From a virus: a DNA stretch of 64,000 bases. The notes beneath the pieces were generated by a model. It searched no databases, was not told where the DNA came from, and was given only the letters and a program-made list of their open reading frames with translations. Made by a program: the position numbers and the translations under genes. Below, one piece after another: positions 28,239 through 63,734 of this stretch; positions within the stretch are counted from its first letter, which is position 1; every line of letters starts with the position of its first letter. The DNA lies in IMG/VR virus record IMGVR_UViG_3300045988_177154, positions 32,001 through 96,000 of that record; one strand, given 5' to 3'.

Positions 28239-29279
28239 ATGGGTAAGTATCATATAAATTTAAAGGGTGAAGTTGCTATTTGTAGAGCAATGGAGCATTG
28301 CCCTTTGGGGGGAGCACATTTTGAGCATCAAGCAGAAGCAATAGAATATGCTGATAGAATGAATGAAACTGTTATCAATAGTAATTTGCCTGAAGATTTA
28401 GCTAGAATGGAATATATTGAAGAAGATATTTTTAGGCATAAATTTATTCATGATGAAGATTATTCTATGCAAGAAGCTCTGAAAAGAGGTGAGTACGTTG
28501 AGAAAAGAGTAGAATATGCTAGAACAGTTGAAAAACTAGATTCTAAAAGCTTATACTATGATGAAACGATTGAAGATTATTCACCAGAAAGAAAAGCACT
28601 TCACAATAGATTGCTAAGAGAAGTCTTAGATAAATATAAAGATGTACCATGTGAAGCAAAAGTCTTTATGTCTGGTGGAATTTCAGGTGCTGGTAAAACT
28701 ACAATCCTATCAAAAATGGGAATAGATTTTCAAAACTATGCTACTGTTTCATCAGATGACTTCAAAGAATTACTTGCTAGAGAAGGTGCAATACCTCATG
28801 TAGAAGGCTTAACTCCTATGGAAGCATCAAGTCTTGTACATGAAGAATCTTCTCATTTGGCAGATAGATTATTACTCAACCTAGCTAACCAAAGAAAGAA
28901 TTTAATTTATGATTTTACTATGAAATCTGAATCAACTACTATGACTAGAATTGGAACGTTGAATAACTTCGGTTATCAAAATGAAGATATAAGGATAGTC
29001 TTTGTAGATGTTCCATTATCTGTTTCTAAAGGTAGAGCTAAAACAAGATACATGGTTGGATTAAATAACTTTGATTTAGGTGGAAGATGGGTGCCATCAT
29101 TTGTAGCAGATAAACAAAAAGCTAAGACTAATAGATTTAATACTGCTAATGCAGAAACATTAGTTACAATGGGAAGTAAATTAGAAGCAGACGGTTTCCC
29201 AACTCCAATTGTTTACGATAACACGGATGTTGCTAAGAAAATAGACTTTAATGAATTTAGAAAGGGATATAGAGAATGA
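28239..29279 (+). CDS. Zeta-toxin-like P-loop kinase with N-terminal Cys/His module
   Basis: N-terminus is MGKYHINLKGEVAICRAMEHCPLGGAHF. Walker A is SGGISGAGKTT in the C-terminal half. Confidence 0.55.
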   Translation: MGKYHINLKGEVAICRAMEHCPLGGAHFEHQAEAIEYADRMNETVINSNLPEDLARMEYIEEDIFRHKFIHDEDYSMQEALKRGEYVEKRVEYARTVEKLDSKSLYYDETIEDYSPERKALHNRLLREVLDKYKDVPCEAKVFMSGGISGAGKTTILSKMGIDFQNYATVSSDDFKELLAREGAIPHVEGLTPMEASSLVHEESSHLADRLLLNLANQRKNLIYDFTMKSESTTMTRIGTLNNFGYQNEDIRIVFVDVPLSVSKGRAKTRYMVGLNNFDLGGRWVPSFVADKQKAKTNRFNTANAETLVTMGSKLEADGFPTPIVYDNTDVAKKIDFNEFRKGYRE

Positions 29280-31698: not shown

Positions 31699-32259
31699 AT
31701 GAAATATTTTGATTGCTGGTTGAGGCGGATTGATAAGAAAGAATATGCAAGAATACAGCAAAGAAAAGAATTATATGAAAAAGGTTTAGGTAGAGTTTTC
31801 GTTTTTCTTGATGTGGACGGAGTGTTAAATATTAACCGAACTGATGATAAATTTACTTATATAACTTCATCTACGGTATGGAAGATTAGAAATGAAGTTC
31901 TAGCTTGGATAAAAGAAATGAGTAACTTTATCAATGTACAATTCATCTGGTTATCAACTTGGCAAAATGAATGTAATGAGATTAACAAAGCTCTGAATAT
32001 TGAAGCTTTTCCAATTTCAAATGAATACATTAACCCTAAGGAAATGGACTCATTAACTATCAAAAAGAAACAAATAAATAAGTTGAGGAGCTTATATCCA
32101 TTAGCTAAAATTGTTTCCATTGATGATGATTTAAAGAAAACTGAAGTTAGTTCAGATTTTCATTTACAGCCTAAATCTGAATTAGGCTTAACACATGAAG
32201 ATTTAGTTATTTTAACTAATAAAATTAAAAAATACTTAGAACATAGAAAGGTATATTAA
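31699..32259 (+). CDS. HAD-superfamily phosphatase-like protein
   Basis: FLDVDGVLN (DxDG motif I). Start set at MKYFDCW (GGAGAA RBS), because the first ATG sits at the predicted transcription start of promoter 31639-31667. Confidence 0.5.
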   Translation: MKYFDCWLRRIDKKEYARIQQRKELYEKGLGRVFVFLDVDGVLNINRTDDKFTYITSSTVWKIRNEVLAWIKEMSNFINVQFIWLSTWQNECNEINKALNIEAFPISNEYINPKEMDSLTIKKKQINKLRSLYPLAKIVSIDDDLKKTEVSSDFHLQPKSELGLTHEDLVILTNKIKKYLEHRKVY

Positions 32260-36629: not shown

Positions 36630-37622
36630 GTGATTATTGAGGGGTATTTGTTTTCTGAAAAAGCAAGAATGATAAACAATATTTATTATGGTATTGTTGA
36701 ATATGATAACAGTAATTGCATTTATTACAATATTACTGATTATGATTTTGCTCTACTGAAATTAAACACTTTTGTGTATAAAGTAGAAGTTGATTCAAAT
36801 GATGTTTATTCTTTAACACCAAGCCATGTTTCGGCCATTAAATACCGAGTAAAAGAAGAAATAAATTTTAATGAATGGATTAAAGCTGCTCAATTTACTG
36901 AAGATGAATTTGGTCAAGATAAAATTGAATGGGATTCAATTATTGATGGTTCTATGGTAAGTGATGAAGTTTTAAGTATCTATAATAAAATTATGCGCTG
37001 TCAACCATGGTCGTTATCATTTGCTCAAATCATAAAACTTCATGCAATCTTAAATCAAAAGACATATGAGCTTCCAATCTTAAAACTACTAATGTGGAAT
37101 AAGGAATATGCTAGAGTTTATGAATTTTATCATAGAAAATATGAAATAGATTATAATGTGTATATTGTTGTAAGAGAGGAGTTTGTAGAACGTGAAGCTC
37201 TATATGGGTCAAAAATTTTTGAAAGTATAAACAGTAAAGATAATAGTATTCAATTTCCAAATATTTTTTACTTGATAGAAACAAGGAAATTTACTCAAAA
37301 TGAATTTGAAGTATGTTGGCTGAAAAATATCTGTCGCCTAAGTGATGAAAATAAAAGAACCTATATTAGAGCTGCTTTGATAGCAAATTACAACATAACA
37401 CCTTTACATAGAGATATATATCCAGTTGCTCTTATGCTTAAATATCCGGAATTAGCAACAAAATTAACTCGTAACAATATTGGTGACCCTAGTTGCATTT
37501 CAAGACTACTTATGCTTGGATATAAAATAAAAGGAAAAGATTATAAAGGAAAATATATTTCTATTTTAAATGCTAGAAAAATCATGAAAAATGATGAATA
37601 TAAATTTATAGAAATTGATTGA
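36630..37622 (+). CDS. paralog family F protein (~330 aa)
   Basis: GTG start. Shares YLFS, YKVEVDSNDV, KLHAILNQKTYELP, RKFTQNEFE, YP.LA and LLMLGYKIK blocks with the 44789-50781 array. Confidence 0.7.
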   Translation: MIIEGYLFSEKARMINNIYYGIVEYDNSNCIYYNITDYDFALLKLNTFVYKVEVDSNDVYSLTPSHVSAIKYRVKEEINFNEWIKAAQFTEDEFGQDKIEWDSIIDGSMVSDEVLSIYNKIMRCQPWSLSFAQIIKLHAILNQKTYELPILKLLMWNKEYARVYEFYHRKYEIDYNVYIVVREEFVEREALYGSKIFESINSKDNSIQFPNIFYLIETRKFTQNEFEVCWLKNICRLSDENKRTYIRAALIANYNITPLHRDIYPVALMLKYPELATKLTRNNIGDPSCISRLLMLGYKIKGKDYKGKYISILNARKIMKNDEYKFIEID

Positions 37623-38956: not shown

Positions 38957-39160
38957 TCTTTACCTCATTTCTACTTCGCAAATGAGCACTTCTTCACCAT
39001 CATCAAAATTAAAATCATCTTTATAGGGCAAGAATAAATAAGAATCTGTACTCTTATCGTAGTAGAATTGTGCTTTCATATTGAATAGGATAGTTAGTAA
39101 ATCCGTAATTTTTTGTTTCGATTCTTTTGGATTTTAAGTTCTGAATGATTAGTAATACCA
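38957..39160 (-). pseudogene. truncated, frame-disrupted copy of the 3' part of gene 40795-41145
   Basis: About 200 nt align nucleotide for nucleotide, with scattered changes, to 40795-41003. Homology stops at CCAATATT (39155-39162), next to the TnpB-like gene's 3' end. Confidence 0.65.
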
Positions 39161-39162
39161 AT

Positions 39163-39310
39163 ATTGTTGCTTACATCTGTAACTTATTGTAATAATGAAT
39201 AAGTGAGTTGTAAGGTAATACCTCATGTAGAGGACGAACTCCTAATTCAACTTGAACCGTTGAATCAAGTACATTCGTTAGAAATGACACAATTTGACCA
39301 TTTCCTTTAA
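39163..39310 (-). ncRNA. candidate omega-RNA scaffold overlapping the 3' end of the TnpB-like gene
   Basis: Position is typical for TnpB omega-RNA. A second non-coding copy with compensatory hairpin changes exists at 52353-52491. Confidence 0.5.
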
Positions 39311-40667
39311 GCTTATTTACTTTTTCCTTAATTTCTTTTTTATTTGATTTTGGTTTAACTCTTTTAGTCTTTGCCTTTTTTGGTAAAGATTTTTTGAGCT
39401 TAATATTAGTAGAACGAATCGCAATATTGATAGCAGCTAATAAATCTCTATCAATTTTACCAGTCGTAAATTCAATAGTTCTATCATTAACTACTCCTAT
39501 TTCTTTCGTTATTGGGTGCTCCTTACTAGTATTAAATGCAGAAACCTTTTTTACCTCAATTCCATACATAGTGGCTTTCTCTATAATTTTAGAATGAATT
39601 TGAGAATGATTCCATTTACCACCTTGTGAATTTAACCAAGATAAATCTTCAATATGAATTGTTTTACACTTCTGCTCTAATGCTAAATTTACAATTTCGT
39701 TTGACAAAAGCTTTGCTTGATAATCTTTTGTGTTAATAATTTTATTAGAAATATTTGAATAAAGATTTTTCCAAATTTCATATTTAGATTGATTTGTTAA
39801 CCTTAAAGCTTCATAAGATTTAAGTTTATCATATAAGATTTGTTTATTTTCATAAAGTTTATTGATTTTATATTCTGTTTCTTGGCTTCGTTTTGTGTTG
39901 ACAAATTCATTACTGAAATTACCTTTTCTATCAACAACAACAGAACTAAATAATTTAATTTTACCTATATCCACACCTAAGATTTTATCTTCTAACACAT
40001 AATCCCCCACTTCATATTCATAAGAGCAAATACCTATATATTGATTATCTCTTTTACGTTTAATAAATCTAGGCTTCGCAATTCTGCCTGTAAATCTTTC
40101 ATCTATACTACTTGGAAAGATTATTTCATATTCAATCCAATCTTTTTTGCTCACTTTTATTTCACAAATATTACCTTGTTTCATTCTGAATATTTGCTTT
40201 TCTGAAATAGTATAATCAAGATTGAATACAGCGCTTCGTGCTAATTCGGGTATGGAATTATTACGTTTAATATTGGCAATTCTACTTCTTGTTGGGTAAA
40301 GTTTTAATTTGTGTAATGAATTAAATAAATCTTCATTTATGTTAAAATCATTTTTAACTAATTGATTCCAAATGATGATTGCTTCTTGTTTTGACTTTAT
40401 TTCTCGTCTGATGTTTTCAAACAAGATATACGAGTGCCAGGTTTTATTATGCAACGGCCAGTCTTTTATTCGGAATTTAAGACTATCCCTCATATCCCTC
40501 CAAACATCGCCTCTGAGTTTAGATAAATCAATTTTATCCAAGAGAGCTCTTGTTTCATCATTAGAGAGAATAAAATTTAACTCATTTTGTAAGAAATCAT
40601 AAATAGGTATAAGTTCTGATGGCATATTTATATTAAAACTTTTCCAATGAACTTTTTTCTTTTTCAT
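39171..40667 (-). CDS. tnpB: TnpB-like RNA-guided nuclease homolog lacking the zinc-finger cysteines
   Basis: RuvC-I ILGVDIGK, RuvC-II TIHIEDLS and RuvC-III KIDRDLLAAINIA. The segment between AFNTS and DRD has no Cys. Lys-rich tail follows. Confidence 0.8.
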   Translation of the reverse strand: MKKKKVHWKSFNINMPSELIPIYDFLQNELNFILSNDETRALLDKIDLSKLRGDVWRDMRDSLKFRIKDWPLHNKTWHSYILFENIRREIKSKQEAIIIWNQLVKNDFNINEDLFNSLHKLKLYPTRSRIANIKRNNSIPELARSAVFNLDYTISEKQIFRMKQGNICEIKVSKKDWIEYEIIFPSSIDERFTGRIAKPRFIKRKRDNQYIGICSYEYEVGDYVLEDKILGVDIGKIKLFSSVVVDRKGNFSNEFVNTKRSQETEYKINKLYENKQILYDKLKSYEALRLTNQSKYEIWKNLYSNISNKIINTKDYQAKLLSNEIVNLALEQKCKTIHIEDLSWLNSQGGKWNHSQIHSKIIEKATMYGIEVKKVSAFNTSKEHPITKEIGVVNDRTIEFTTGKIDRDLLAAINIAIRSTNIKLKKSLPKKAKTKRVKPKSNKKEIKEKVNKLKGNGQIVSFLTNVLDSTVQVELGVRPLHEVLPYNSLIHYYNKLQM

Positions 40668-40794
40668 TTTACTCCTTTTATGTTATTTATTGTTACTATT
40701 ATAACAAATCATCAGTTTATTTTCAATTAAAGTTAATCATAAAGTTATAATAATTTACAAGAAATATCTATAAAAATTATCTGCTTCTATTATT

Positions 40795-41145
40795 TTACCT
40801 CATAACAACTTCACAAATAATAACTTCTTCGCCATTATCAAAGTCAAAATCATCTTTGTATGGTAAGAATAAGTAAGAATCAGTACTATTATCGTAGTAA
40901 TATTGAGACTTCATATTGAATAGAATAATTAAGAGTTCTGTAATTTTATTCTTTGATTCATTTTGAATTTCAAGTTTGGATTGGTTTGTAACACCAATAT
41001 TATCAAAAGAGTAATTATAGATAGTAAAGTTAGAATGATGATTAACTTTATTTTTTAAGTATTCATAATTATCTTTATTGAAGTCTTTAATTTTAGATAG
41101 CGGAAAATTCAAGACTAAGTTTAATGTTTCTTCTTTAATTTTCAT
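40795..41145 (-). CDS. hypothetical protein, intact paralog of pseudogene 38957-39160
   Basis: Start set at MKIKEETL (AGAGGA RBS 8 nt upstream). Confidence 0.55.
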   Translation of the reverse strand: MKIKEETLNLVLNFPLSKIKDFNKDNYEYLKNKVNHHSNFTIYNYSFDNIGVTNQSKLEIQNESKNKITELLIILFNMKSQYYYDNSTDSYLFLPYKDDFDFDNGEEVIICEVVMR

Positions 41146-48757: not shown

Positions 48758-49741
48758 ATGGCTGTTAAATGCTATTTATTTACAAGTGTGGCTAGACAAT
48801 TAAATCATACTTATTACTCATTAGAATATAATAAATCTTTATACTTTTACCATAATTTAAATGATTATCATAAAGAAGTGAATAAAATTCTATTAAATCC
48901 CTTTGTTTATGAAGTAGAAGTTGAGCCTAAAACAGTGATTGCTTGTGATTCCTTAGGTTTAGTTGCAACGGAATTTAAACTTGTTAGAGAAGTAGAACTT
49001 ACAGAACTTATCAATGCTTATAAATTTTCAATAAAAACGAAAAATGAAATCAATTCTATTCTTAATGGGCTTGCTGATTCATCAGAAGTAATTTCTTTAT
49101 ATAAAAGATTTTTTAAAAAATCTAAATGGGACCTGTCTAAAATTGAAAAATTCAAATTCTTAGCTATATTGAGTCAAAATCACTATAAATTACCTGTTAT
49201 GAAGATTCGTGAAAATTCTGGTATGGAATATGTTAGGATATTGAAATTCTTTAACAAACCTTACATACCCGCCTTTAGAAGCAATGATAGTACGTTTGAT
49301 AGATTTATTGAAATAGAAGAACTTTATGGAAGCAAAGATTTTGAAACTGGTGTAGAATTACCTATGAAAGAACTGGTTTGCCATATTAACTTGAAACAAT
49401 ATATAGAAACAAGGAAATTATCCCAAGAACAATTTGAAGAGTATTGTGAATATATGTTTACTGAAGAAAGAACAATATATTACACTTCTCATGCTATAGC
49501 AGCTGGATATAAAATTTTACCAAAATACAAAAAACATTTTTATCCATATTTAATTTATTCTGACCCCGAAATGGCATTAGAATTGCTTAATAAAAGGAAT
49601 TTAACTCGTACTGCAGTTATTTATTTCTATGAAAAGAATTATAAAATAGGTGATTACAATTACTCTAATGATAAAGTTAGAGAAACAAAAGCAATCTTTG
49701 TAAAAGAAGATGATTATAAATGTATTGAAGTAGCAACTTGA
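48758..49741 (+). CDS. paralog family F protein
   Basis: MAVKCYLFT start. Family blocks are present. Confidence 0.7.
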   Translation: MAVKCYLFTSVARQLNHTYYSLEYNKSLYFYHNLNDYHKEVNKILLNPFVYEVEVEPKTVIACDSLGLVATEFKLVREVELTELINAYKFSIKTKNEINSILNGLADSSEVISLYKRFFKKSKWDLSKIEKFKFLAILSQNHYKLPVMKIRENSGMEYVRILKFFNKPYIPAFRSNDSTFDRFIEIEELYGSKDFETGVELPMKELVCHINLKQYIETRKLSQEQFEEYCEYMFTEERTIYYTSHAIAAGYKILPKYKKHFYPYLIYSDPEMALELLNKRNLTRTAVIYFYEKNYKIGDYNYSNDKVRETKAIFVKEDDYKCIEVAT

Positions 49742-49797
49742 TAGTTGCTTTTTCTTTTTGTTTATTATATAATATAATAGAGCGAAAGGAGTTAATT

Positions 49798-50781
49798 ATG
49801 ATTATAAAATGCTATTTGTTTTCAGATAGAACTAGACAATTAGGTCATACTTATTATTCATTAGGAATGGGAGATTATTTGTATTTTGAGCTTAGCTCAT
49901 ACCAAGATTATTTTCACATTGGTGACCCATTTGTTTACGAAGTAGAAGTTGATACAGACAAAATATTGTATTGTGATAGTGAAAGTGTACACTCTATTGA
50001 GTACAAGATAAGTAGAGTAATCAAATTTGAAGAATATATTTTTACGTTTGAGTTTCCAAAAGATGATTTAAAAGAATTACTTAATATACTTGATGGAAAT
50101 ATTGACAAAAATGAAATGATAGAATTTTATACTGCAATCATTAGTAAAGATGTTTACAAAGTAAATAGGTTTGAGCAATTAAAACTTTTTGCAATATTAA
50201 ATCAAACAAAATATGAGCTGCCAGAAGTAACAATAGAAAAAGAATTTCAAATGGATTACTATGTTAAGCTTTTAATTTATTACAATAAACCTTATCAAGC
50301 TATTTGTAAACATTCCGCCAAAATTTCTGGGTTTAGAAAAGAACTTAATAAGCAGAGAATGCGGGGAACTACTACTTTTGAAACAATTTCAGATGAAATC
50401 ACCGAAAGATTAGCTTATAATTATTTTTTAGATGAATATATACTAAATAGACAACTTACTCAAGAACAATTTGAAAGTTTATGTGAGTACTTCAAGTGGA
50501 ATACACATATTTTTAAATTTAGAATAAAACTTAGTTCAATTGCAGCTGGTTACAAAATTCTACCAGAACATAGAAGTCTTTTTTATCCTTTTGTGCTTTA
50601 TCATGGAATAGAAGATAATTTGGATATAATTGACCGTGAGAAAAAGCCTGATGAATTATTAAAGATTTTATTTAACTGCGGTTATAAATTTAAAAATGTT
50701 GATTATAGCGACATGCCTTCACATGATAAAATTACTGAAGCAAAAATCATCTTTCAAAAAGGATTTAAATATATAGAATAA
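49798..50781 (+). CDS. paralog family F protein
   Basis: Start moved to MIIKCYLFS (AAAGGAG RBS). Confidence 0.7.
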   Translation: MIIKCYLFSDRTRQLGHTYYSLGMGDYLYFELSSYQDYFHIGDPFVYEVEVDTDKILYCDSESVHSIEYKISRVIKFEEYIFTFEFPKDDLKELLNILDGNIDKNEMIEFYTAIISKDVYKVNRFEQLKLFAILNQTKYELPEVTIEKEFQMDYYVKLLIYYNKPYQAICKHSAKISGFRKELNKQRMRGTTTFETISDEITERLAYNYFLDEYILNRQLTQEQFESLCEYFKWNTHIFKFRIKLSSIAAGYKILPEHRSLFYPFVLYHGIEDNLDIIDREKKPDELLKILFNCGYKFKNVDYSDMPSHDKITEAKIIFQKGFKYIE

Positions 50782-50983: not shown

Positions 50984-51409
50984 ATGGCTACTACTGAAGA
51001 ATTACTAACAGAAGCTAGAGAATATTTTGCTCAATTGGAAAAACCAAATGAAGAATTAAATGTTGACTATAATTCTGATTATGTGTTATTTGATGAAATA
51101 GATAAAGAAAATCTAAATAAAAATGGTAGACGAGTATTGCTACTTGACTTAAATAACGGAATGAAAGCTGCATTTTTACTAATACCAGATATGGAACAAA
51201 ATCGTTTTACTTTATCTAAGATTAAAGAAACTGCATCTGTACGATTACTTACAAAAGAAACAAAAAATACAGTAAAACAATTTACTTCTCATAAAGGATT
51301 TTTCCCTACTCTAACTTTAGAACAACAAGGGGATATTACTGGAGCTGTTGTTAAATTAAAAGATGGTTCTTATGCAACAATTACTGAACAATTGGAGGTA
51401 ATTAAATAA
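50984..51409 (+). CDS. hypothetical protein (141 aa, no Cys), first gene of the E1/Ubl/JAB cassette
   Basis: Behind promoter 50926-50954. Its stop overlaps the start of the E1-like gene (TAATG). Confidence 0.6.
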   Translation: MATTEELLTEAREYFAQLEKPNEELNVDYNSDYVLFDEIDKENLNKNGRRVLLLDLNNGMKAAFLLIPDMEQNRFTLSKIKETASVRLLTKETKNTVKQFTSHKGFFPTLTLEQQGDITGAVVKLKDGSYATITEQLEVIK

Positions 51410-52089
51410 TGCTGAAAATTAAAGAAGGCCGAAAATATTATATTGTACTAGGTGCTGGTGGAACTGGGTCTTGGCTTGCACAATTCCTATCTAAAATTGA
51501 AGTTCCAGTATACCTTATTGATGGTGATGTGGTGGAACCTAAAAATGTTCTCCGTCAAAACTTTGTCAATGAAGAAGTAAATATGAGCAAAGCAGAAATT
51601 GCTAAAAAATGGGATTTTGCTTATGTGCCTGAATTTTTGAGTGATACTTCTATTATTGATGAAATTATTGCTCAAGAAGAAGGCACACCAGTACTTGTAG
51701 GTTGCTTAGATAACAATGCTACTCGTAAAATTGCTCAAGATGTATTCTACAATCCTAATTACAAAGACATTTTGTGGTTAGACGGTGGAAATGCAGAGCG
51801 ACATGGTCAAGCTTATGTTGCGGCTAAATATGATAATGAAGTTCATTATGAAAGTCCTATTGCTCTTGACCCAGCATTCCAAAACTTTGAAGGTGATGAA
51901 CGTAGACCAGACCAGATTTCATGTGCTGAACAATCTGAGTCTGCGCCACAAAACGTAACTGCAAACGTTACTAGTGCTACATTGTTATTTAATCTAATTA
52001 ACTTGATTGAAGAAAATGCTATGTTGCTTGGAAATAAATTTATGTTCCACACAAAATTATGTAGTATGACAACAACAGAAATTGTTTGA
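51409..52089 (+). CDS. ThiF/MoeB/E1-like adenylyltransferase
   Basis: Rossmann GAGGTGS, then IDGDVVEPKNVLRQNF (the DxDxVExxNLxRQ signature of E1-like enzymes). Cys in PDQISCAEQ. Confidence 0.75.
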   Translation: MLKIKEGRKYYIVLGAGGTGSWLAQFLSKIEVPVYLIDGDVVEPKNVLRQNFVNEEVNMSKAEIAKKWDFAYVPEFLSDTSIIDEIIAQEEGTPVLVGCLDNNATRKIAQDVFYNPNYKDILWLDGGNAERHGQAYVAAKYDNEVHYESPIALDPAFQNFEGDERRPDQISCAEQSESAPQNVTANVTSATLLFNLINLIEENAMLLGNKFMFHTKLCSMTTTEIV

Positions 52090-52114
52090 CAAAGTTTGAT
52101 TAACCTGATAAAAT
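52086..52114 (+). promoter_or_regulatory. sigma-A type promoter overlapping the E1-like gene stop
   Basis: TTGACA-17-TAAAAT. Confidence 0.65.
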
Positions 52115-52145
52115 AAATTTATAAATATGAAAGGAGTTCATTGTC

Positions 52146-52310
52146 ATGGCTTTTAATCCTAGTCAGATTAAATTTGTTCAGTACAAAGGAGAAAAATTTC
52201 CCTTGAATGGAGCAGATTATAATAAAGTTCTTGATTTGCTGAAAATTCCAAAATCAGCAACAGTAACAATTGTAGGTAATACAATTATTGTTACCACTCG
52301 AAAAAGTTGA
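52146..52310 (+). CDS. small Ubl-like (possible beta-grasp) protein, 54 aa
   Basis: Hand-translated MAFNPSQIKFVQYKGEKFPLNGADYNKVLDLLKIPKSATVTIVGNTIIVTTRKS. AAAGGAG RBS. Behind promoter 52086-52114. Paralogous to the N-terminus of 52537-53070. Confidence 0.5.
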   Translation: MAFNPSQIKFVQYKGEKFPLNGADYNKVLDLLKIPKSATVTIVGNTIIVTTRKS

Positions 52311-52319
52311 TAAAAATAG

Positions 52320-52348
52320 TTGACAAACGCTAAATCACTTGTTATAAT
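52320..52348 (+). promoter_or_regulatory. sigma-A type promoter driving the orphan omega-RNA-like element and gene 52537
   Basis: TTGACA-17-TATAAT. Confidence 0.8.
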
Positions 52349-52352
52349 GAAA

Positions 52353-52491
52353 TTAAAGGAAATAATCAAATTGTGTTATTTCTAATAGATGTACCATATT
52401 TAATCATTAAATTTGGAGTCTATCCTCTATTTGAGGTATTACCTTGCAACTCACTTATTTATTACAATAAGTTACAGGTGTAAGCAACAAT
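52353..52491 (+). ncRNA. orphan omega-RNA-like element (copy of the 3' segment of TnpB-like gene 39171-40667)
   Basis: 139 nt alignable to 39310-39163 (minus strand) with compensatory hairpin substitutions and in-frame stops. Begins about 5 nt after the -10 box of promoter 52320-52348. Confidence 0.6.
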
Positions 52492-52536
52492 GTAAATATA
52501 AAATAAAAAATAAAATTTTGAAAGGAGCTATTTAAA

Positions 52537-53070
52537 ATGGCTACAAATATTTATGAAAACGTTACGGAGATTGTTTTCCAAAACAATCGCTTCCCACTGA
52601 ATGGTGCTTCTGTTGATGATGTACTTGCATTGCTAAACGTCCCAGACAATGCAGAATTGGCAGTAGAAGGTACTGCTCTTCTAATTACAGAAAAATCTGG
52701 TACAAAGGGTGCTGACCCTGACCCAGAATTGATTGCTAAGTTGGCTGCTACTTTTGGTGGCGAAGCAATCAAAGGTGCTAGTGTGAAACTCCACCGTGCT
52801 TCAAATGGTAAATGGGTACCAAAAATCCCTGGTTTCACTCTTGATGAAGTTGCTTACTTGCTTGAAAAAGATGTAGAACTTTCAGAAGAAATGACTGATG
52901 AACAAGTTGAAATTGCTCGTCAAGCTCTTGAACAACGTGATGCTGAAATTGAAGCACAACGTGTTGCAGAAAAACAAGCTTTAGTAACAGAAGCTCTTGA
53001 AGGCTCAGGTCTTAACTTCACTTATGACCAATTGGTCTGTTTGCAAAAAGCTCTTGATGCTATTCGCTAA
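52537..53070 (+). CDS. Ubl-like N-terminal module fused to an acidic helical C-terminal region
   Basis: EIVFQNNRFPLNGASVDDVLALLNVPDNAELAVEGTALLITEKSG aligns with the 54-aa ORF. Visibly more G/C-rich codons than neighbouring genes. Confidence 0.6.
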   Translation: MATNIYENVTEIVFQNNRFPLNGASVDDVLALLNVPDNAELAVEGTALLITEKSGTKGADPDPELIAKLAATFGGEAIKGASVKLHRASNGKWVPKIPGFTLDEVAYLLEKDVELSEEMTDEQVEIARQALEQRDAEIEAQRVAEKQALVTEALEGSGLNFTYDQLVCLQKALDAIR

Positions 53071-53098
53071 AAACAACACACTATTTAACAAAAAAAGA

Positions 53099-53130
53099 AA
53101 ATCACACTTCAGTGTGATTTTTTTATTTTT
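53099..53130 (+). terminator. intrinsic terminator after gene 52537-53070
   Basis: AAATCACAC-TTCA-GTGTGATTT plus a T run. Confidence 0.8.
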
Positions 53131-53145
53131 TAATACACTTTTCGG

Positions 53146-53174
53146 TTGACAAATTCATAATTGTTTGATAGAAT
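53146..53174 (+). promoter_or_regulatory. sigma-A type promoter
   Basis: TTGACA-17-TAGAAT. Confidence 0.7.
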
Positions 53175-53204
53175 ATATAATATAATAAGAAAGGGGAAAA
53201 TACA

Positions 53205-53942
53205 ATGCCTATTTTAGAACTAGACGCTAGTCAATATGTGAAGCAAGGTCGAATTTTTAAGAAATTTGATTCTAATTTGCTTGATTCATATATGGACGGT
53301 AGACAAAATAACTATAATATTAACTTAGCAGAATTAGATGACCAAATTTCTGATGGTATCGTTTATGCTGACCGAAATGGTAAAATGATTTACAAATTTG
53401 GAGCTAAGAAAATTATTCAAACAGCAATCACAAATGGATTGGAAATTAGTGGGTTGTCTAAGGATTTAGAAATGAAGCATTATTCATTTTGGGTACCTGA
53501 TTTATATTTTGTTTCATTTTACAGTTTTAATCCAAATGAAGATTTATATATTGCATACCGTAGCAAAGATGAAGAATTTATTTGCTTGACAAATATTTGG
53601 CCTGACGGTTCGAGCTATGCAGAGGATTATTTCCCTAATGGTGACCGATTAACTCTTAAAAGACTTTGTAAGGGTAGCATGATGTCAGATGTTAGTTCGA
53701 GCGATTATGACGCATGGAGAAATAATGCTGTCACTCGTGCTAGTCAATTTGTAAATAAATTTGTAAGTGCTCGAGGAAATTCTGACTTAGATTTTGTTGG
53801 TAGTGCATTGCGAAGCAAAGTACCGAGTCATAATATTAAAAAATGTGCAGTATTTCTTGGCACAATTACAAAAGAACAAGAAAATGTAAACACTTATGAA
53901 GAGTTCATGGAATGGACTAAAAATACAAAATGGTTTAAATAA
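53205..53942 (+). CDS. hypothetical protein, tentative E2/UBC-like candidate
   Basis: FNPNEDLYIAYRSKDEEFICLTNIW recalls the E2 HPN...ICL arrangement. Position is between the Ubl and JAB genes. Motif-level guess only. Confidence 0.3.
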   Translation: MPILELDASQYVKQGRIFKKFDSNLLDSYMDGRQNNYNINLAELDDQISDGIVYADRNGKMIYKFGAKKIIQTAITNGLEISGLSKDLEMKHYSFWVPDLYFVSFYSFNPNEDLYIAYRSKDEEFICLTNIWPDGSSYAEDYFPNGDRLTLKRLCKGSMMSDVSSSDYDAWRNNAVTRASQFVNKFVSARGNSDLDFVGSALRSKVPSHNIKKCAVFLGTITKEQENVNTYEEFMEWTKNTKWFK

Positions 53943-53965
53943 AAAGAAAGTGAGAAATAAATAAA

Positions 53966-55144
53966 ATGAAATTAGTAGAACTTTACTCATCAGAACAATT
54001 TAAAAAAGAATCTGACCGTGGTATGATTAAAACAGTTATTGTCGGAAAAGACGGTACGTATGAAGAACAAAATTCTTGGTTAGGTACTTCTCTGAAAAAA
54101 GTACATGATTATGGAGTTATTACATTCCCCGAAGTTACTGAATTTGTAAAAGTAAAAAATGTAAATGTTACAAAAATTCCAGCAATTGCCATTAAAACAG
54201 TAATGAAATGGTACAAAGACATTACTGATAAGAATGGAGAAGAAGCACAAGTAAACTTTTATCTTAAAAGTCGTAAATTGGGCGGAACTCCACAAGATGG
54301 TATTTACAAATTAACTTATACTGAAGAAGATGAATTTGGAATTGAAACAGAAAAGACAGTTAAATTAGAAGATATTCCGGGGCTTAACTTTTGGAATGAT
54401 GATGTATTCTCATATACACCAAAACAAGAAAATTCACACGGCCAAACAAGTACAGATGACCCAATCTATACAGCTCTAAATCAACAATATGGAATGTTTT
54501 TGGAAACACATTCACATAACAGCATGCCAGCATTTTGCTCAAGTACTGACTATGCAAATTCTCAAAATGACGCTGTTCAATTAGTATTTGGGAAATTCAA
54601 AGGCTCTCATATTGAAATGTATAACTGGATTACAGTAAGTCAAAAGCTTAAGGAAGGTTTTGATGCTCATGTATTGGAAAAATTTGTAGAATTTCCAACT
54701 TATTCTGTAAATACAGCAGAAAAGAAATTGAACTTTGATTTTTCTGTACTTTCAGGTGTTGATGAAACAATTCTTGAAGAATGGGATAAACAAGTTATCA
54801 AACCTAAACCTATTGTACGTTCATTTGGATATGGTAGTTATGGTGGCGGATATGCTAACACAATTTGGTCTACTTCAGATACAACTCGTTCACCTTGGAC
54901 TCCAAAACATGGTTCTACTGTAACATCATACAAATCAACTCCAGCTAAGATTGAAGAAGGTTCTGAAAAAGCAATTATTGATTTACTAGAAATGTATGGC
55001 AATGATGCAATTAGTGTGATTGAAAATCTAGTAAGTATTTACAAATCAGCTATTTCAAATGCTACTTATGTAAGCAAGACTGAAACAGAAATTCAAGATG
55101 AAATTGTCACTCTTGTATCGGATGCAATTGATGAACTTTTCTAA
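53966..55144 (+). CDS. JAMM/JAB (MPN+) metallopeptidase domain protein
   Basis: Exact JAMM core H-S-H-NSMPAFC-S-ST-D (HxHx7Sx2D) with an upstream Glu (GEEAQV). Additional ~200-aa C-terminal region. Confidence 0.75.
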   Translation: MKLVELYSSEQFKKESDRGMIKTVIVGKDGTYEEQNSWLGTSLKKVHDYGVITFPEVTEFVKVKNVNVTKIPAIAIKTVMKWYKDITDKNGEEAQVNFYLKSRKLGGTPQDGIYKLTYTEEDEFGIETEKTVKLEDIPGLNFWNDDVFSYTPKQENSHGQTSTDDPIYTALNQQYGMFLETHSHNSMPAFCSSTDYANSQNDAVQLVFGKFKGSHIEMYNWITVSQKLKEGFDAHVLEKFVEFPTYSVNTAEKKLNFDFSVLSGVDETILEEWDKQVIKPKPIVRSFGYGSYGGGYANTIWSTSDTTRSPWTPKHGSTVTSYKSTPAKIEEGSEKAIIDLLEMYGNDAISVIENLVSIYKSAISNATYVSKTETEIQDEIVTLVSDAIDELF

Positions 55145-62478: not shown

Positions 62479-62563
62479 GCTCGGCTGGTGAAATTTGGCA
62501 AACACAGGGGACTTAAAATCCCCCGACCATTTGGTCTTGCGGGTTCGAGTCCCGCGCTGAGCA
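62479..62563 (+). tRNA. tRNA-Leu (anticodon TAA), type II with long variable arm
   Basis: GCTCGGC/GCTGAGC acceptor stem (one G-T pair). Anticodon arm GGGGA-CTTAAAA-TCCCC. Variable arm GACC-ATTT-GGTC. T arm GCGGG-TTCGAGT-CCCGC. No encoded CCA. Confidence 0.85.
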
Positions 62564-62740
62564 TGATGTGGTGTCTAACAGCCACAAGTCCTCAATTGTT
62601 AGGTTAACCGAAAGGCTAAAATAAATTCAGCGTAATGAGGCATTATGTTTAAGTAATTTATTTTAGGGTAGCTTCCTACCGTAAAGACAGGTATGGTTTA
62701 AGTTAAAATAAGCGTAATAAATAAACAAAAGACTTATCAC

Positions 62741-62824
62741 TTAAATCGGTGACCGAAGACAATCCGTATAATGGCGGTGACTTGTTCGTTGAAATAGAAA
62801 CGGAAAACATTGGTAGTTGTTCAT
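62741..62824 (-). CDS. possible 27-aa peptide gene in a tRNA spacer
   Basis: TAGGAGGTG RBS 6 nt before the ATG. Translation is MNNYQCFPFLFQRTSHRHYTDCLRSPI. No other support. Confidence 0.25.
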   Translation of the reverse strand: MNNYQCFPFLFQRTSHRHYTDCLRSPI

Positions 62825-62840
62825 GACTGCCACCTCCTAT

Positions 62841-62912
62841 TGACCTGTAGCTCAATGGTAGAGCATCCGGCTGTTAACCGGAAGGTTGTGGGTTCGAGTC
62901 CCACCGGGTCAG
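62841..62912 (+). tRNA. tRNA-Asn (anticodon GTT)
   Basis: TGACCTG/CGGGTCA acceptor stem. D arm GCTC-AATGGTA-GAGC. Anticodon arm TCCGG-CTGTTAA-CCGGA. T arm GTGGG-TTCGAGT-CCCAC. Confidence 0.9.
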
Positions 62913-62923
62913 TTAAATTAACT

Positions 62924-63072
62924 TAATGAGCGATACGTTTTATTCCGAATGACCTCCTTAATAAATTTCGGGATTTATCCTCCTTTCATACAACACACGT
63001 TAAATTTTTACTTTTCTAATGAAAGTAAAGAAAAGTAAAAAATATTCTTTCATTGTTTTGTATCGCTCGTTA
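62924..63072 (+). ncRNA. candidate structured RNA closed by a 13-bp long-range helix, with two CCUCCUU motifs
   Basis: TAATGAGCGATAC (62924-62936) pairs with GTATCGCTCGTTA (63060-63072). Internal hairpins are ATTCCGAA...TTCGGGAT, displaying ACCTCCTTA, and TTTACTTTC-TAAT-GAAAGTAAA. Confidence 0.35.
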
Positions 63073-63081
63073 TTTTAATTT

Positions 63082-63154
63082 GGGCCCATAGCTCAGACGG
63101 CAGAGCAGCGGACTTTTAATCCGTGGGTCGCAGGTTCGATTCCTGCTGGGCCCA
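63082..63154 (+). tRNA. tRNA-Lys (anticodon TTT)
   Basis: GGGCCCA/TGGGCCC acceptor stem. D arm GCTC-AGACGGCA-GAGC. Anticodon arm GCGGA-CTTTTAA-TCCGT. T arm GCAGG-TTCGATT-CCTGC. Confidence 0.9.
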
Positions 63155-63187
63155 TTCCTAGTAAAATAAATATATATTAGGTGACCT

Positions 63188-63246
63188 TAGGCACAAACAG
63201 CAACTACTCACACTTTCTATTTGGCAGAAAAAAGATGAGGTGCCTA
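63188..63246 (+). ncRNA. tRNA-like mini-unit U1 (terminal helix plus anticodon-arm-like hairpin, loop ATTTGGC)
   Basis: TAGGCAC pairs with GTGCCTA. A-A-ACAGCAA motif follows the 5' strand. Hairpin TTTCT-ATTTGGC-AGAAA at 63214-63230. Confidence 0.4.
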
Positions 63247-63264
63247 GTTTATACATTTTATACA

Positions 63265-63339
63265 TAACGACATACAGCAAGAATTTTTTAATAACGAAAC
63301 AGACTCCAAATCTATTTTTTCATTTTTAAAAAGTCGTTA
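63265..63339 (+). ncRNA. tRNA-like mini-unit U2 (loop CTCCAAA)
   Basis: TAACGAC pairs with GTCGTTA. ATACAGCAA motif. Hairpin ACAGA-CTCCAAA-TCTAT (one mismatch) at 63299-63315. Confidence 0.4.
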
Positions 63340-63351
63340 GAGTTATATAAT

Positions 63352-63426
63352 TAGTGACACACAGCAATTCTTCAAACTTAGGAACAAAACGTCATTTTGT
63401 AATTACTAAAATAAGAATCGTCACTA
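63352..63426 (+). ncRNA. tRNA-like mini-unit U3 (loop ACGTCAT)
   Basis: TAGTGAC pairs with GTCACTA. ACACAGCAA motif. Hairpin ACAAA-ACGTCAT-TTTGT at 63384-63400. Confidence 0.4.
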
Positions 63427-63451
63427 GATTAAATAATTTTTTTGAATATAT

Positions 63452-63513
63452 TAGTGGCATACAGCAACTCTACTATGGAATGGACTTTTAATCTGTAACC
63501 CAAGAGGCCACTA
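63452..63513 (+). ncRNA. tRNA-like mini-unit U4 (loop CTTTTAA, identical to the tRNA-Lys anticodon loop)
   Basis: TAGTGGC pairs with GCCACTA. ATACAGCAA motif. Hairpin ATGGA-CTTTTAA-TCTGT at 63480-63496. No D or T arm. 62 nt in total. Confidence 0.4.
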
Positions 63514-63540
63514 GATTATATTAGATTAAATTGAATATGT

Positions 63541-63650
63541 TAGTGGCAATCAGCAATTCTTGTCAAACCAGAGGGTTGTGGGTTCGAGCCCCACCGGTTC
63601 AATTGAACCGTAGCTCAATTGGTAGAGCATCAGGCATAAAACAGCCACTA
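63541..63650 (+). ncRNA. tRNA-like unit U5 enclosing a circularly permuted tRNA-like cloverleaf
   Basis: TAGTGGC pairs with GCCACTA. AATCAGCAA motif. Inside, a tRNA 3' half (CCAGA-GGGTT-GTGGG-TTCGAGC-CCCAC-CGGTTCA) is joined by AT to a 5' half (TGAACCG-TA-GCTC-AATTGGTA-GAGC-A-TCAGG). Confidence 0.45.
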
Positions 63651-63662
63651 GATTTTTATTTT

Positions 63663-63734
63663 GGAACCTTAGCTCATAAGGCAGAGCATTCGGTTGAAGC
63701 CCGTTGCGGATAGGTTCGATTCCTATAGGTTCCG
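63663..63734 (+). tRNA. tRNA-Phe-like (anticodon GAA) with a weak anticodon stem
   Basis: GGAACCT/AGGTTCC acceptor stem. D arm GCTC-ATAAGGCA-GAGC. T arm ATAGG-TTCGATT-CCTAT. Anticodon arm TTCGG-TTGAAGC-CCGTT has only 3 Watson-Crick pairs plus two T-T mismatches. Confidence 0.55.

Follow-up and report, generated by a model that had tools for sequence, protein, structure and literature searches.

So far, demonstrations of homing by TnpB nucleases come mostly from engineered systems, either bacterial or plasmid-based. In the TnpB/omega-RNA (OMEGA) systems of IS200/IS605 and IS607 transposons, a RuvC nuclease gene is overlapped at its 3' end by a structured RNA that stops at the right end of the transposon, and the adjacent flank serves as the guide (Karvelis 2021, PMC8612924; Meers 2023, 10.1101/2023.03.14.532601). 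Protein-less derivatives of IS200/IS605 elements, known as PATEs, carry omega-RNAs that are acted on in trans by TnpB (Meers et al., 10.1101/2023.03.14.532601). For phages, a review from 2026 (PMC13565253) discusses "transposon non-restorative homing" into co-infecting phages as theoretical or plasmid-supported, and nuclease-dead TnpB relatives (TldR) are known as prophage repressors (10.1101/2023.11.30.569447).

The DNA analyzed here, referred to as the window, is a 64,000-nt stretch (positions 32,001 to 96,000 of IMG/VR virus record IMGVR_UViG_3300045988_177154). It was found to carry a full-length mobile TnpB unit and, 12 kb away, a solo 143-nt copy of the terminal scaffold of that unit inserted in the leader of another gene. 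Related loci are referred to below by L numbers. The reading that is preferred, with a probability of roughly 0.55, is that the solo copy is an omega-RNA mini-element that acts in trans and spreads itself into relatives infecting the same cell.

The full-length TnpB unit and its carriers

The full-length unit (39163..40788, minus strand, ~1626 nt) was composed of a left end (AGAAGCAG...), its own promoter, tnpB, the scaffold and a right end (...GCAACAAT). The tnpB-like gene (39171..40667, minus strand) encoded a 498-aa protein that was matched by Pfam PF07282 (Cas12f1-like_TNB) at 35.6 bits, with a cut-off of 26.3, and from which the CxxC...CxxC cysteines were absent (TSKEHPITKE...TTGK). This cysteine-less zinc-ribbon region was located at residues ~380-410. 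The motifs GVDIG, IHIEDL, and IDRDLLAAINIA were aligned with the catalytic D, E, and D of TnpB/Cas12f chains 8j3r and 9nzq (E ~1e-5); in one L066 copy, IHIENL was present in place of IHIEDL. A tblastn self-check recovered no second tnpB-like gene in the window.

More than 120 cluster representatives were 85-91% identical to the protein and were encoded on metagenomic contigs as long as ~350 kb, and intact tnpB ORFs were present in hundreds of relatives. Given the intact RuvC D/E/D residues and these intact ORFs, the TnpB looks active. A TldR-like dead nuclease was rejected as a candidate because the catalytic triad is intact. Searches of 50,697 isolated phage records returned nothing by megablast (both loci) or tblastn (TnpB), GTDB genome representatives contained no close relative of the TnpB-like protein, and no host or autonomous parent element was found among the isolated phages and GTDB representatives. 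Since relatives were found on metagenomic contigs and not in these two collections, the carrier is best described as an uncultivated jumbo-phage lineage (29% G+C).

A scaffold-motif scan of IMG/VR and metagenome contigs returned 51 loci. Homology between the unit and L001-L004 stopped sharply at both ends and the flanks were unrelated. Approximately 45 further unit copies were located at 25 or more distinct sites on related jumbo-phage contigs, with up to 4 full copies in a single 329-kb phage contig. The unit ends were invariant, with TAAT followed by AG(A/G)AGCAG on the left and ...GT(A/G)A..AACAAT on the right. Empty sites were available for ~10 independent insertions, and all of these read (A/G)TAAT followed directly by the sequence found 3' of the filled right end. 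By comparison of filled and empty sites, insertion was scarless, 3' of TAAT, and without target duplication. In the window, TAAT abutted the left end of the unit (40789..40792, minus strand).

The tnpB-linked scaffold (39163..39310, minus strand, 148 nt) took in the 3'-terminal ~140 nt of ORF 39171-40667 and extended 8 nt beyond the stop codon, as a first-pass annotation of this DNA had proposed, and its end coincided with the right terminus of the unit. The guide position of the resident unit (ATTGGTATTACTAATCATTC) followed at 39143..39162 (minus strand). Taken together, the anatomy of 39163-40788 is, as predicted from its sequence, that of a TnpB/omega-RNA element with the TAM TAAT and the transposon-encoded terminus CAAT.

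No transposase gene was present in the 1626-nt unit, which held tnpB only and no Y1 (HUH) TnpA; TnpA may act in trans from the rest of the ~300-kb genome. The left end had no significant DNA hairpin (z +1.47), and mobilisation may be of the IS605 or the IS607 type. At the right end, a hairpin was located 7 nt from the terminus and the DNA-parameter fold had a z score of -1.6. All contigs with the identical neighbouring gene of this unit had the same filled arrangement, and no empty allele was found among them.

The TnpB/omega-RNA family, with its TAAT TAM, cysteine-less TNB domain, and new scaffold, is previously undescribed. Rfam covariance models gave no match to the scaffold at gathering thresholds and only chance-level matches at E<=10, and literature searches returned no account of this TnpB family from phages, nor of any phage promoter harbouring a solo omega-RNA.

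Several further features were observed around the unit. The promoter ahead of tnpB (within 40670-40788, minus strand) was TTGAAA-17-TATAAT with TTTGT before it, and its -10 box was followed by AGTAACAAT, which resembles a TAAT target joined to the right-terminal ...GTAACAAT; this may be the vestige of an older nested insertion, or chance. Directly 3' of the right end, positions 38957-39162 (minus strand) held a 5'-truncated and frameshifted pseudogene copy (~codon 49 to stop, 78-82% identical) of the 116-aa gene located just upstream of the unit (40795-41145, minus strand), and the same arrangement of pseudogene, unit, and gene was present in L039 and L064. The pseudogene started exactly at the site of the intact gene where TAAT is followed by ATTGG. 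The resident guide resembled the sequence TAAT-ATTGGTGTTACAAACC in that gene and matched it up to position 8 only, with the first mismatch at guide position 9. The arrangement is compatible with unequal recombination in which two IS copies, carried by different phages, were located ~350 bp from one another. Elsewhere in the window (28859-28877, minus strand), an empty site, GAGTAATAAT followed by CTATCTGCC..., was identified; a full-length unit occupies this site in L022, L031, and L049, which makes this phage a predicted target of the omega-RNAs of those loci.

A solo copy of the right end

Positions 52353-52491 (plus strand) were aligned with 39310-39163 (minus strand) at 81% identity over 148 columns (blastn E 1e-34), as the first-pass annotation had noticed, and both alignment and blastn recovered these two copies in the 64-kb window and no third. 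The covariance-model scan that it had suggested as a check gave 179 bits for the tnpB-linked copy and 143 bits for the solo copy, with a runner-up of 15 bits. The solo copy (139 nt) was, as reported, 9 nt shorter than the tnpB-linked copy (148 nt), and in both copies homology ended sharply at ...GCAACAAT. The insertion itself, determined from base-exact flanks relative to sister alleles, was 143 nt (52349..52491, plus strand) and consisted of the right-end/omega-RNA scaffold. Its boundary has a 3-nt ambiguity, with AAT common to the TAAT target and the CAAT right terminus.

Compared with full-length units, the insert corresponded to element positions ~1481-1634 only, without tnpB. The left-end sequence AGAAGCAG... 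was absent from it, and the 5' junction (TAAT followed by (G/T)AAAT(T/C)AAAGG) fell at approximately element position 1481. No protein-coding gene and no start codon were present, and the omega-RNA scaffold was retained. The first-pass annotation had argued for conservation at the RNA level from in-frame stops (TAA TAG at 52383-52388). These triplets lie outside the tnpB frame, in which the window's solo copy has no stop codon ahead of the homologous one, so that argument falls; the conclusion drawn from it holds on other grounds, namely the missing start codon, an amino acid identity to TnpB of just 58%, a premature stop in the L061 allele, and compensatory changes in the fold. The solo insert is a protein-less derivative of the TnpB element resident in this phage; it has no left end and corresponds to the final 143 nt, the scaffold. 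It could have originated by an internal deletion ending at the left end or by insertion of a pre-truncated unit. Since it lacks tnpB, it must, if functional, use TnpB in trans.

Searches that covered the window, 450 kb of related loci, and IMG/VR located solo copies only in the leader within the Ubl cassette, a distribution that does not support mobility elsewhere. An IMG/VR scan with a solo-specific motif returned 0 hits, and a scan with a looser 5' motif returned tnpB-linked copies and no further solo copies.

Filled and empty alleles of the leader site

The insert was located immediately downstream of a sigma-70-type promoter (52320..52348, plus strand; TTGACA-17-TATAAT, TG extension) that matches the consensus at 12/12 positions, in agreement with its earlier description as perfect. 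Nine perfect promoters of the TTGACA-17-TATAAT type, including this one, were present in the window, and it was also one of four near-consensus promoters ahead of successive cassette genes (50926, 52086, 52320, and 53146). The final four bases of its -10 hexamer form the TAAT target, or TAM-like motif (52345..52348, plus strand). The gene that follows (52537..53070, plus strand) encodes a 177-aa protein that was identical between filled and empty alleles, and the insert now lies in its 5' leader. Assemblies with this protein number ~440.

In empty alleles, TTGACA-17-TATAAT was followed directly by GTAAATATAAAATAAAAAAT...GGAG, promoter and leader having nothing between them. This promoter was found in the empty alleles L006, L007, L054, L055, L057-L060, L062, and L063. 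Because insert-less sister phages share the same promoter and leader, the promoter is native to gene 52537 and predates the insertion, and its inclusion in the RNA gene was rejected. Consequently, from the earlier proposal of a promoter-driven omega-RNA-like gene, a TnpB-derived non-coding scaffold with a conserved fold is retained and a promoter of its own is not. The insert landed in the -10 box because the TAM is TAAT, and since TAAT ends the -10 hexamer, the insert could borrow the promoter of gene 52537.

The 143-nt insertion was carried exactly 3' of TAAT by the window, L017, L056, and L061. Among ten contigs with the identical 177-aa protein, eight were empty and two were filled; L006 (a ~96% identical relative) and L007 (~78%) were empty and L017 was filled. 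The insertion at this site is polymorphic, and its position after TAAT agrees with the rule found for full-length units.

The putative guide (52492..52511, plus strand; GTAAATATAAAATAAAAAAT) was identical to the post-TAAT sequence of the empty alleles. As the guide is the native leader, it perfectly matches the empty allele next to TAAT, and identity to empty alleles extended to 100% over 90 nt beside TAAT in nine of them. Its composition was ~95% A/T. A target in host or competitor genes had been envisaged earlier for this guide; the perfect TAAT target turned out to be the empty allele of the same locus in relatives. Another target site in the window was rejected, as the sole near-match was its own locus, where CAAT is present instead of TAAT. 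This match of guide and empty allele is classic TnpB homing logic. In L061, the leader had a 7-nt deletion past guide position 17.

The inserts of L056 and L061 were 82% identical, whereas their downstream 1.3 kb were 99.8% identical, and the insert lineage is therefore older than its haplotypes. This is as expected if the insert was passed between genomes by recombination or homing. Around the site (52306-52345), filled alleles carried flank variants that were absent from close empty alleles, some of which were common to the distant empty allele L007. These included the stop context of the small gene (..TGATAAAA in filled and ..TAATAAAA in empty alleles) and the promoter spacer (CTAAAT.AC and CAAAAT.GC, respectively). 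They could represent a co-conversion tract or an old haplotype block.

Conservation of the RNA fold

The solo copy, the tnpB-linked copy, and the L061 copy were predicted to share the same four-hairpin architecture (z -3.3, -3.7, and -4.0, respectively). The two replacements that the first-pass annotation had pointed out between the window copies were recovered: the middle hairpin was exchanged for a different, still self-complementary sequence (ATTCAAC-GGTTCAA-GTTGAAT and ATTTAA-TCA-TTAAAT), and CTTACA/TGTAAG was changed to CTTGCA/TGTAAG, by which an A-U pair becomes G-U and pairing is kept. Across 37 distinct scaffold copies, 98.8% of pair cells were standard pairs and 7 pairs were changed on both sides. 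None of 500 shuffles reached the observed values, and 3' partners slid out of register were 34-43% paired. The solo scaffold was 19% diverged from every sampled tnpB-linked scaffold and had a shorter third hairpin.

In order to compare solo alleles directly, the window and L061 copies were aligned and found to differ at 25 of 143 positions (17.5%). Only 2 of 43 pairs were broken (11.2 +/- 2.3 expected; 0/20,000 simulations as good, P < 5e-5), with 4 compensatory and 3 wobble-compatible changes. Judging from these substitutions, selection on the fold is shown for the non-coding solo alleles. Part of this conservation could be a legacy of two separate full-length ancestors that were functional. 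The common 5' truncation point speaks against such an origin, and together with shared derived features it indicates that the two solo alleles descend from one truncated ancestor.

The conserved structure might also be a feature of the DNA, a single-stranded transposon end recognised by a transposase, with the solo copy as a one-ended transposition product. Insertion was precise at the TAAT target, and the long hairpin 7 nt from the right terminus recalls the right ends of IS200/IS605 elements. We regard this as very improbable, given that four hairpins over 140 nt are all conserved, far beyond what a transposase end site needs, that the right-end DNA fold was not significant (z -1.6) and the left end had no hairpin (z +1.5), and that the unit lacks a transposase gene. 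Furthermore, many G-U pairs were invariant; these are weak as G-T in DNA and make the structure strand-specific, which points to RNA.

Retention of the fold also bears on whether the solo copy is an inert relic, that is, a full-length unit at the TAAT site that lost its left end and tnpB and left 143 nt in the 5' leader as a neutral passenger, which an intact -10 box and ribosome binding site would allow to be tolerated. Decay of units is common, as seen from other 5'-truncated copies (L030, 171 nt; L038, 551 nt; L029, 1158 nt), and the insert is confined to one site and absent from most sister phages. These truncated copies have non-native 5' flanks and are ordinary deletions, and L030 and L038 were because of their flanks rejected as analogues of the solo copy, the flanks of which are base-exact on both sides. 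Neutral decay would have destroyed the fold, yet between two solo alleles that differ by 17.5%, 41 of 43 pairs are retained and compensatory changes are present; the insert is also much older than the surrounding haplotype and has thus persisted and been exchanged. An inert relic is accordingly thought less likely. As one finding that would refute its own guide-RNA proposal, the first-pass annotation had named a mere remnant of a recently deleted tnpB copy whose structure is not conserved; the first half describes the insert correctly, and the second is contradicted by the conserved structure.

The Ubl-like cassette and neighbouring genes

The cassette in which the insert resides extends over 50984-55144 (plus strand). 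Its label as a Ubl cassette was partly verifiable, with 51409-52089 being ThiF/E1-like by Pfam and no Pfam matches for the 54-aa ORF (52146-52310), the 177-aa ORF, or their neighbours. The N-terminal part of the 177-aa protein was paralogous to the 54-aa protein, and an FPLNGA...LL..P motif is found in both.

A functional link between RNA-guided machinery and this cassette had been suggested. Eight of the ten contigs that encode the identical 177-aa protein are without the insert, which is therefore not required by the cassette, and the link to the ThiF/Ubl-like cassette is, as far as these alleles indicate, positional and incidental. The same observation weighs against a domesticated cis-regulatory leader, in which the scaffold, with or without bound TnpB, would control stability, translation, or transcription of the 177-aa gene, for example through TnpB docking on the leader RNA or, in a TldR-like manner, binding weakly to adjacent DNA as a roadblock. 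Such a role would suit an insert located in the 5' UTR directly after the transcription start, with a conserved fold and a guide that matches the DNA immediately downstream beside the near-TAM CAAT. It is nevertheless considered improbable, because the cassette functions without the insert in most of these contigs, the RuvC triad is intact, unlike that of nuclease-dead TldR regulators, and the same scaffold terminates every mobile unit at unrelated loci.

In L057, a sister phage (positions 1-1250), a different TnpB (Pfam OrfB_IS605, ~29% identical to that of the window) was located inside, or replaced most of, the ThiF/E1 gene, the final ~45 nt of which remain ahead of the small gene. IS elements seem to have a tolerated landing site in this cassette. 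Three ~330-aa paralogues with similar N-termini (C/GYLFS...YY) were also observed (36630-37622, 48758-49741, and 49738-50781, plus strand), the latter two in tandem just upstream of the cassette, as was a cluster of four tRNA genes (62479-63734, plus strand) of a kind typical of large phages.

Predicted mechanism and significance

In the preferred reading of a self-driving mini-element, the captured promoter of gene 52537 would produce a transcript from ~52355, 2-3 nt ahead of the first stem, and in the predicted RNA the scaffold would come first, with the native leader after it serving as the guide. TnpB from the unit at 39163-40788 would bind this RNA in trans, and a co-infecting phage with the un-inserted allele (TAAT plus the identical leader, TAAT-GTAAAT...) would be cut by the complex, the predicted substrate being TAAT-GTAAATATAAAATAAA. 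Recombinational repair from the filled allele would then copy the insert in, as non-restorative homing or a gene drive. The phage's own locus would be spared, since the transposon terminus provides CAAT where TAAT is required.

A more far-reaching version is held tentatively, at somewhat less than even odds: that this is a guide-only gene drive in jumbo phages, in which a 143-nt omega-RNA mini-gene with neither left end nor nuclease borrows a promoter and a TnpB encoded 12 kb away, is kept by selection through the cutting of empty alleles, and is copied together with linked markers. If true, this would be a natural split-drive architecture for RNA-guided homing between viruses.

The locus offers filled and empty alleles of one site in one natural phage population, with the exact predicted TAM and target in the empty allele. 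A guide that is physically separate from its nuclease, combined with these alleles and with evidence of selection, makes for an unusually clean natural case, and non-restorative RNA-guided homing between co-infecting viruses becomes directly testable with natural alleles. The biology of the solo copy is predicted by current TnpB models. In addition, an undescribed TnpB/omega-RNA family is found proliferating within jumbo-phage genomes, and the view of RNA-guided machinery as functionally tied to the ThiF/Ubl-like cassette is corrected.

Comparison with known systems

Like the TnpB/omega-RNA systems of IS200/IS605-IS607 elements (Karvelis 2021, PMC8612924; Meers 2023, 10.1101/2023.03.14.532601), the full-length unit combines a RuvC nuclease gene with a structured RNA over its 3' end that stops at the right end, takes the adjacent flank as guide, and has a 4-nt TAAT both 5' of its left end and 5' of the empty-site target. 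Insertion is likewise scarless and without duplication, and with CAAT at its right terminus instead of the TAM, the unit would be protected from self-cutting. On these predictions the unit has three TnpB/OMEGA features, namely a RuvC triad, a 3'-end omega-RNA reaching the right end, and a TAM at the left end and the empty site. It differs from described systems in its carriers, which are uncultivated ~300-350-kb phages without relatives among GTDB representatives or isolated phages, in its long protein (498 aa) without zinc-ribbon cysteines, and in the absence of tnpA and of a left-end hairpin, and its scaffold falls outside Rfam families. Relative to IS200/IS605 transposons as such, insertion 3' of a specific tetranucleotide, scarless and without duplication, was found, and a TnpA in the unit was not.

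The solo copy resembles a PATE in that it has no protein gene, retains the scaffold and right end, and has to make use of a TnpB from another genomic locus. Unlike a PATE, it has no left end and so is not excisable as one, it is found at one site with no dispersed copies, and it would be expressed from a captured host-gene promoter, since the TAM coincides with the -10 box. Assignment as a PATE was rejected on the missing left end and the single site. With TldR (10.1101/2023.11.30.569447) the locus shares a phage-borne TnpB relative and a guide at a promoter or leader; it differs in its intact RuvC triad, in the relation of guide and target, which is that of an insertion flank, and in being dispensable in sister phages.

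The closest parallel to the preferred reading is found in phage homing endonuclease genes and non-restorative homing (PMC13565253). The filled/empty polymorphism among near-identical phages, an insert older than the flanking haplotype, and a nuclease target that is predicted to be the empty allele are all common to them. Here, unlike in homing endonuclease genes, it is the mobile insert whose own RNA would confer specificity, with the nuclease encoded at a distance of 12 kb, and the element being driven would carry the guide and not the enzyme.
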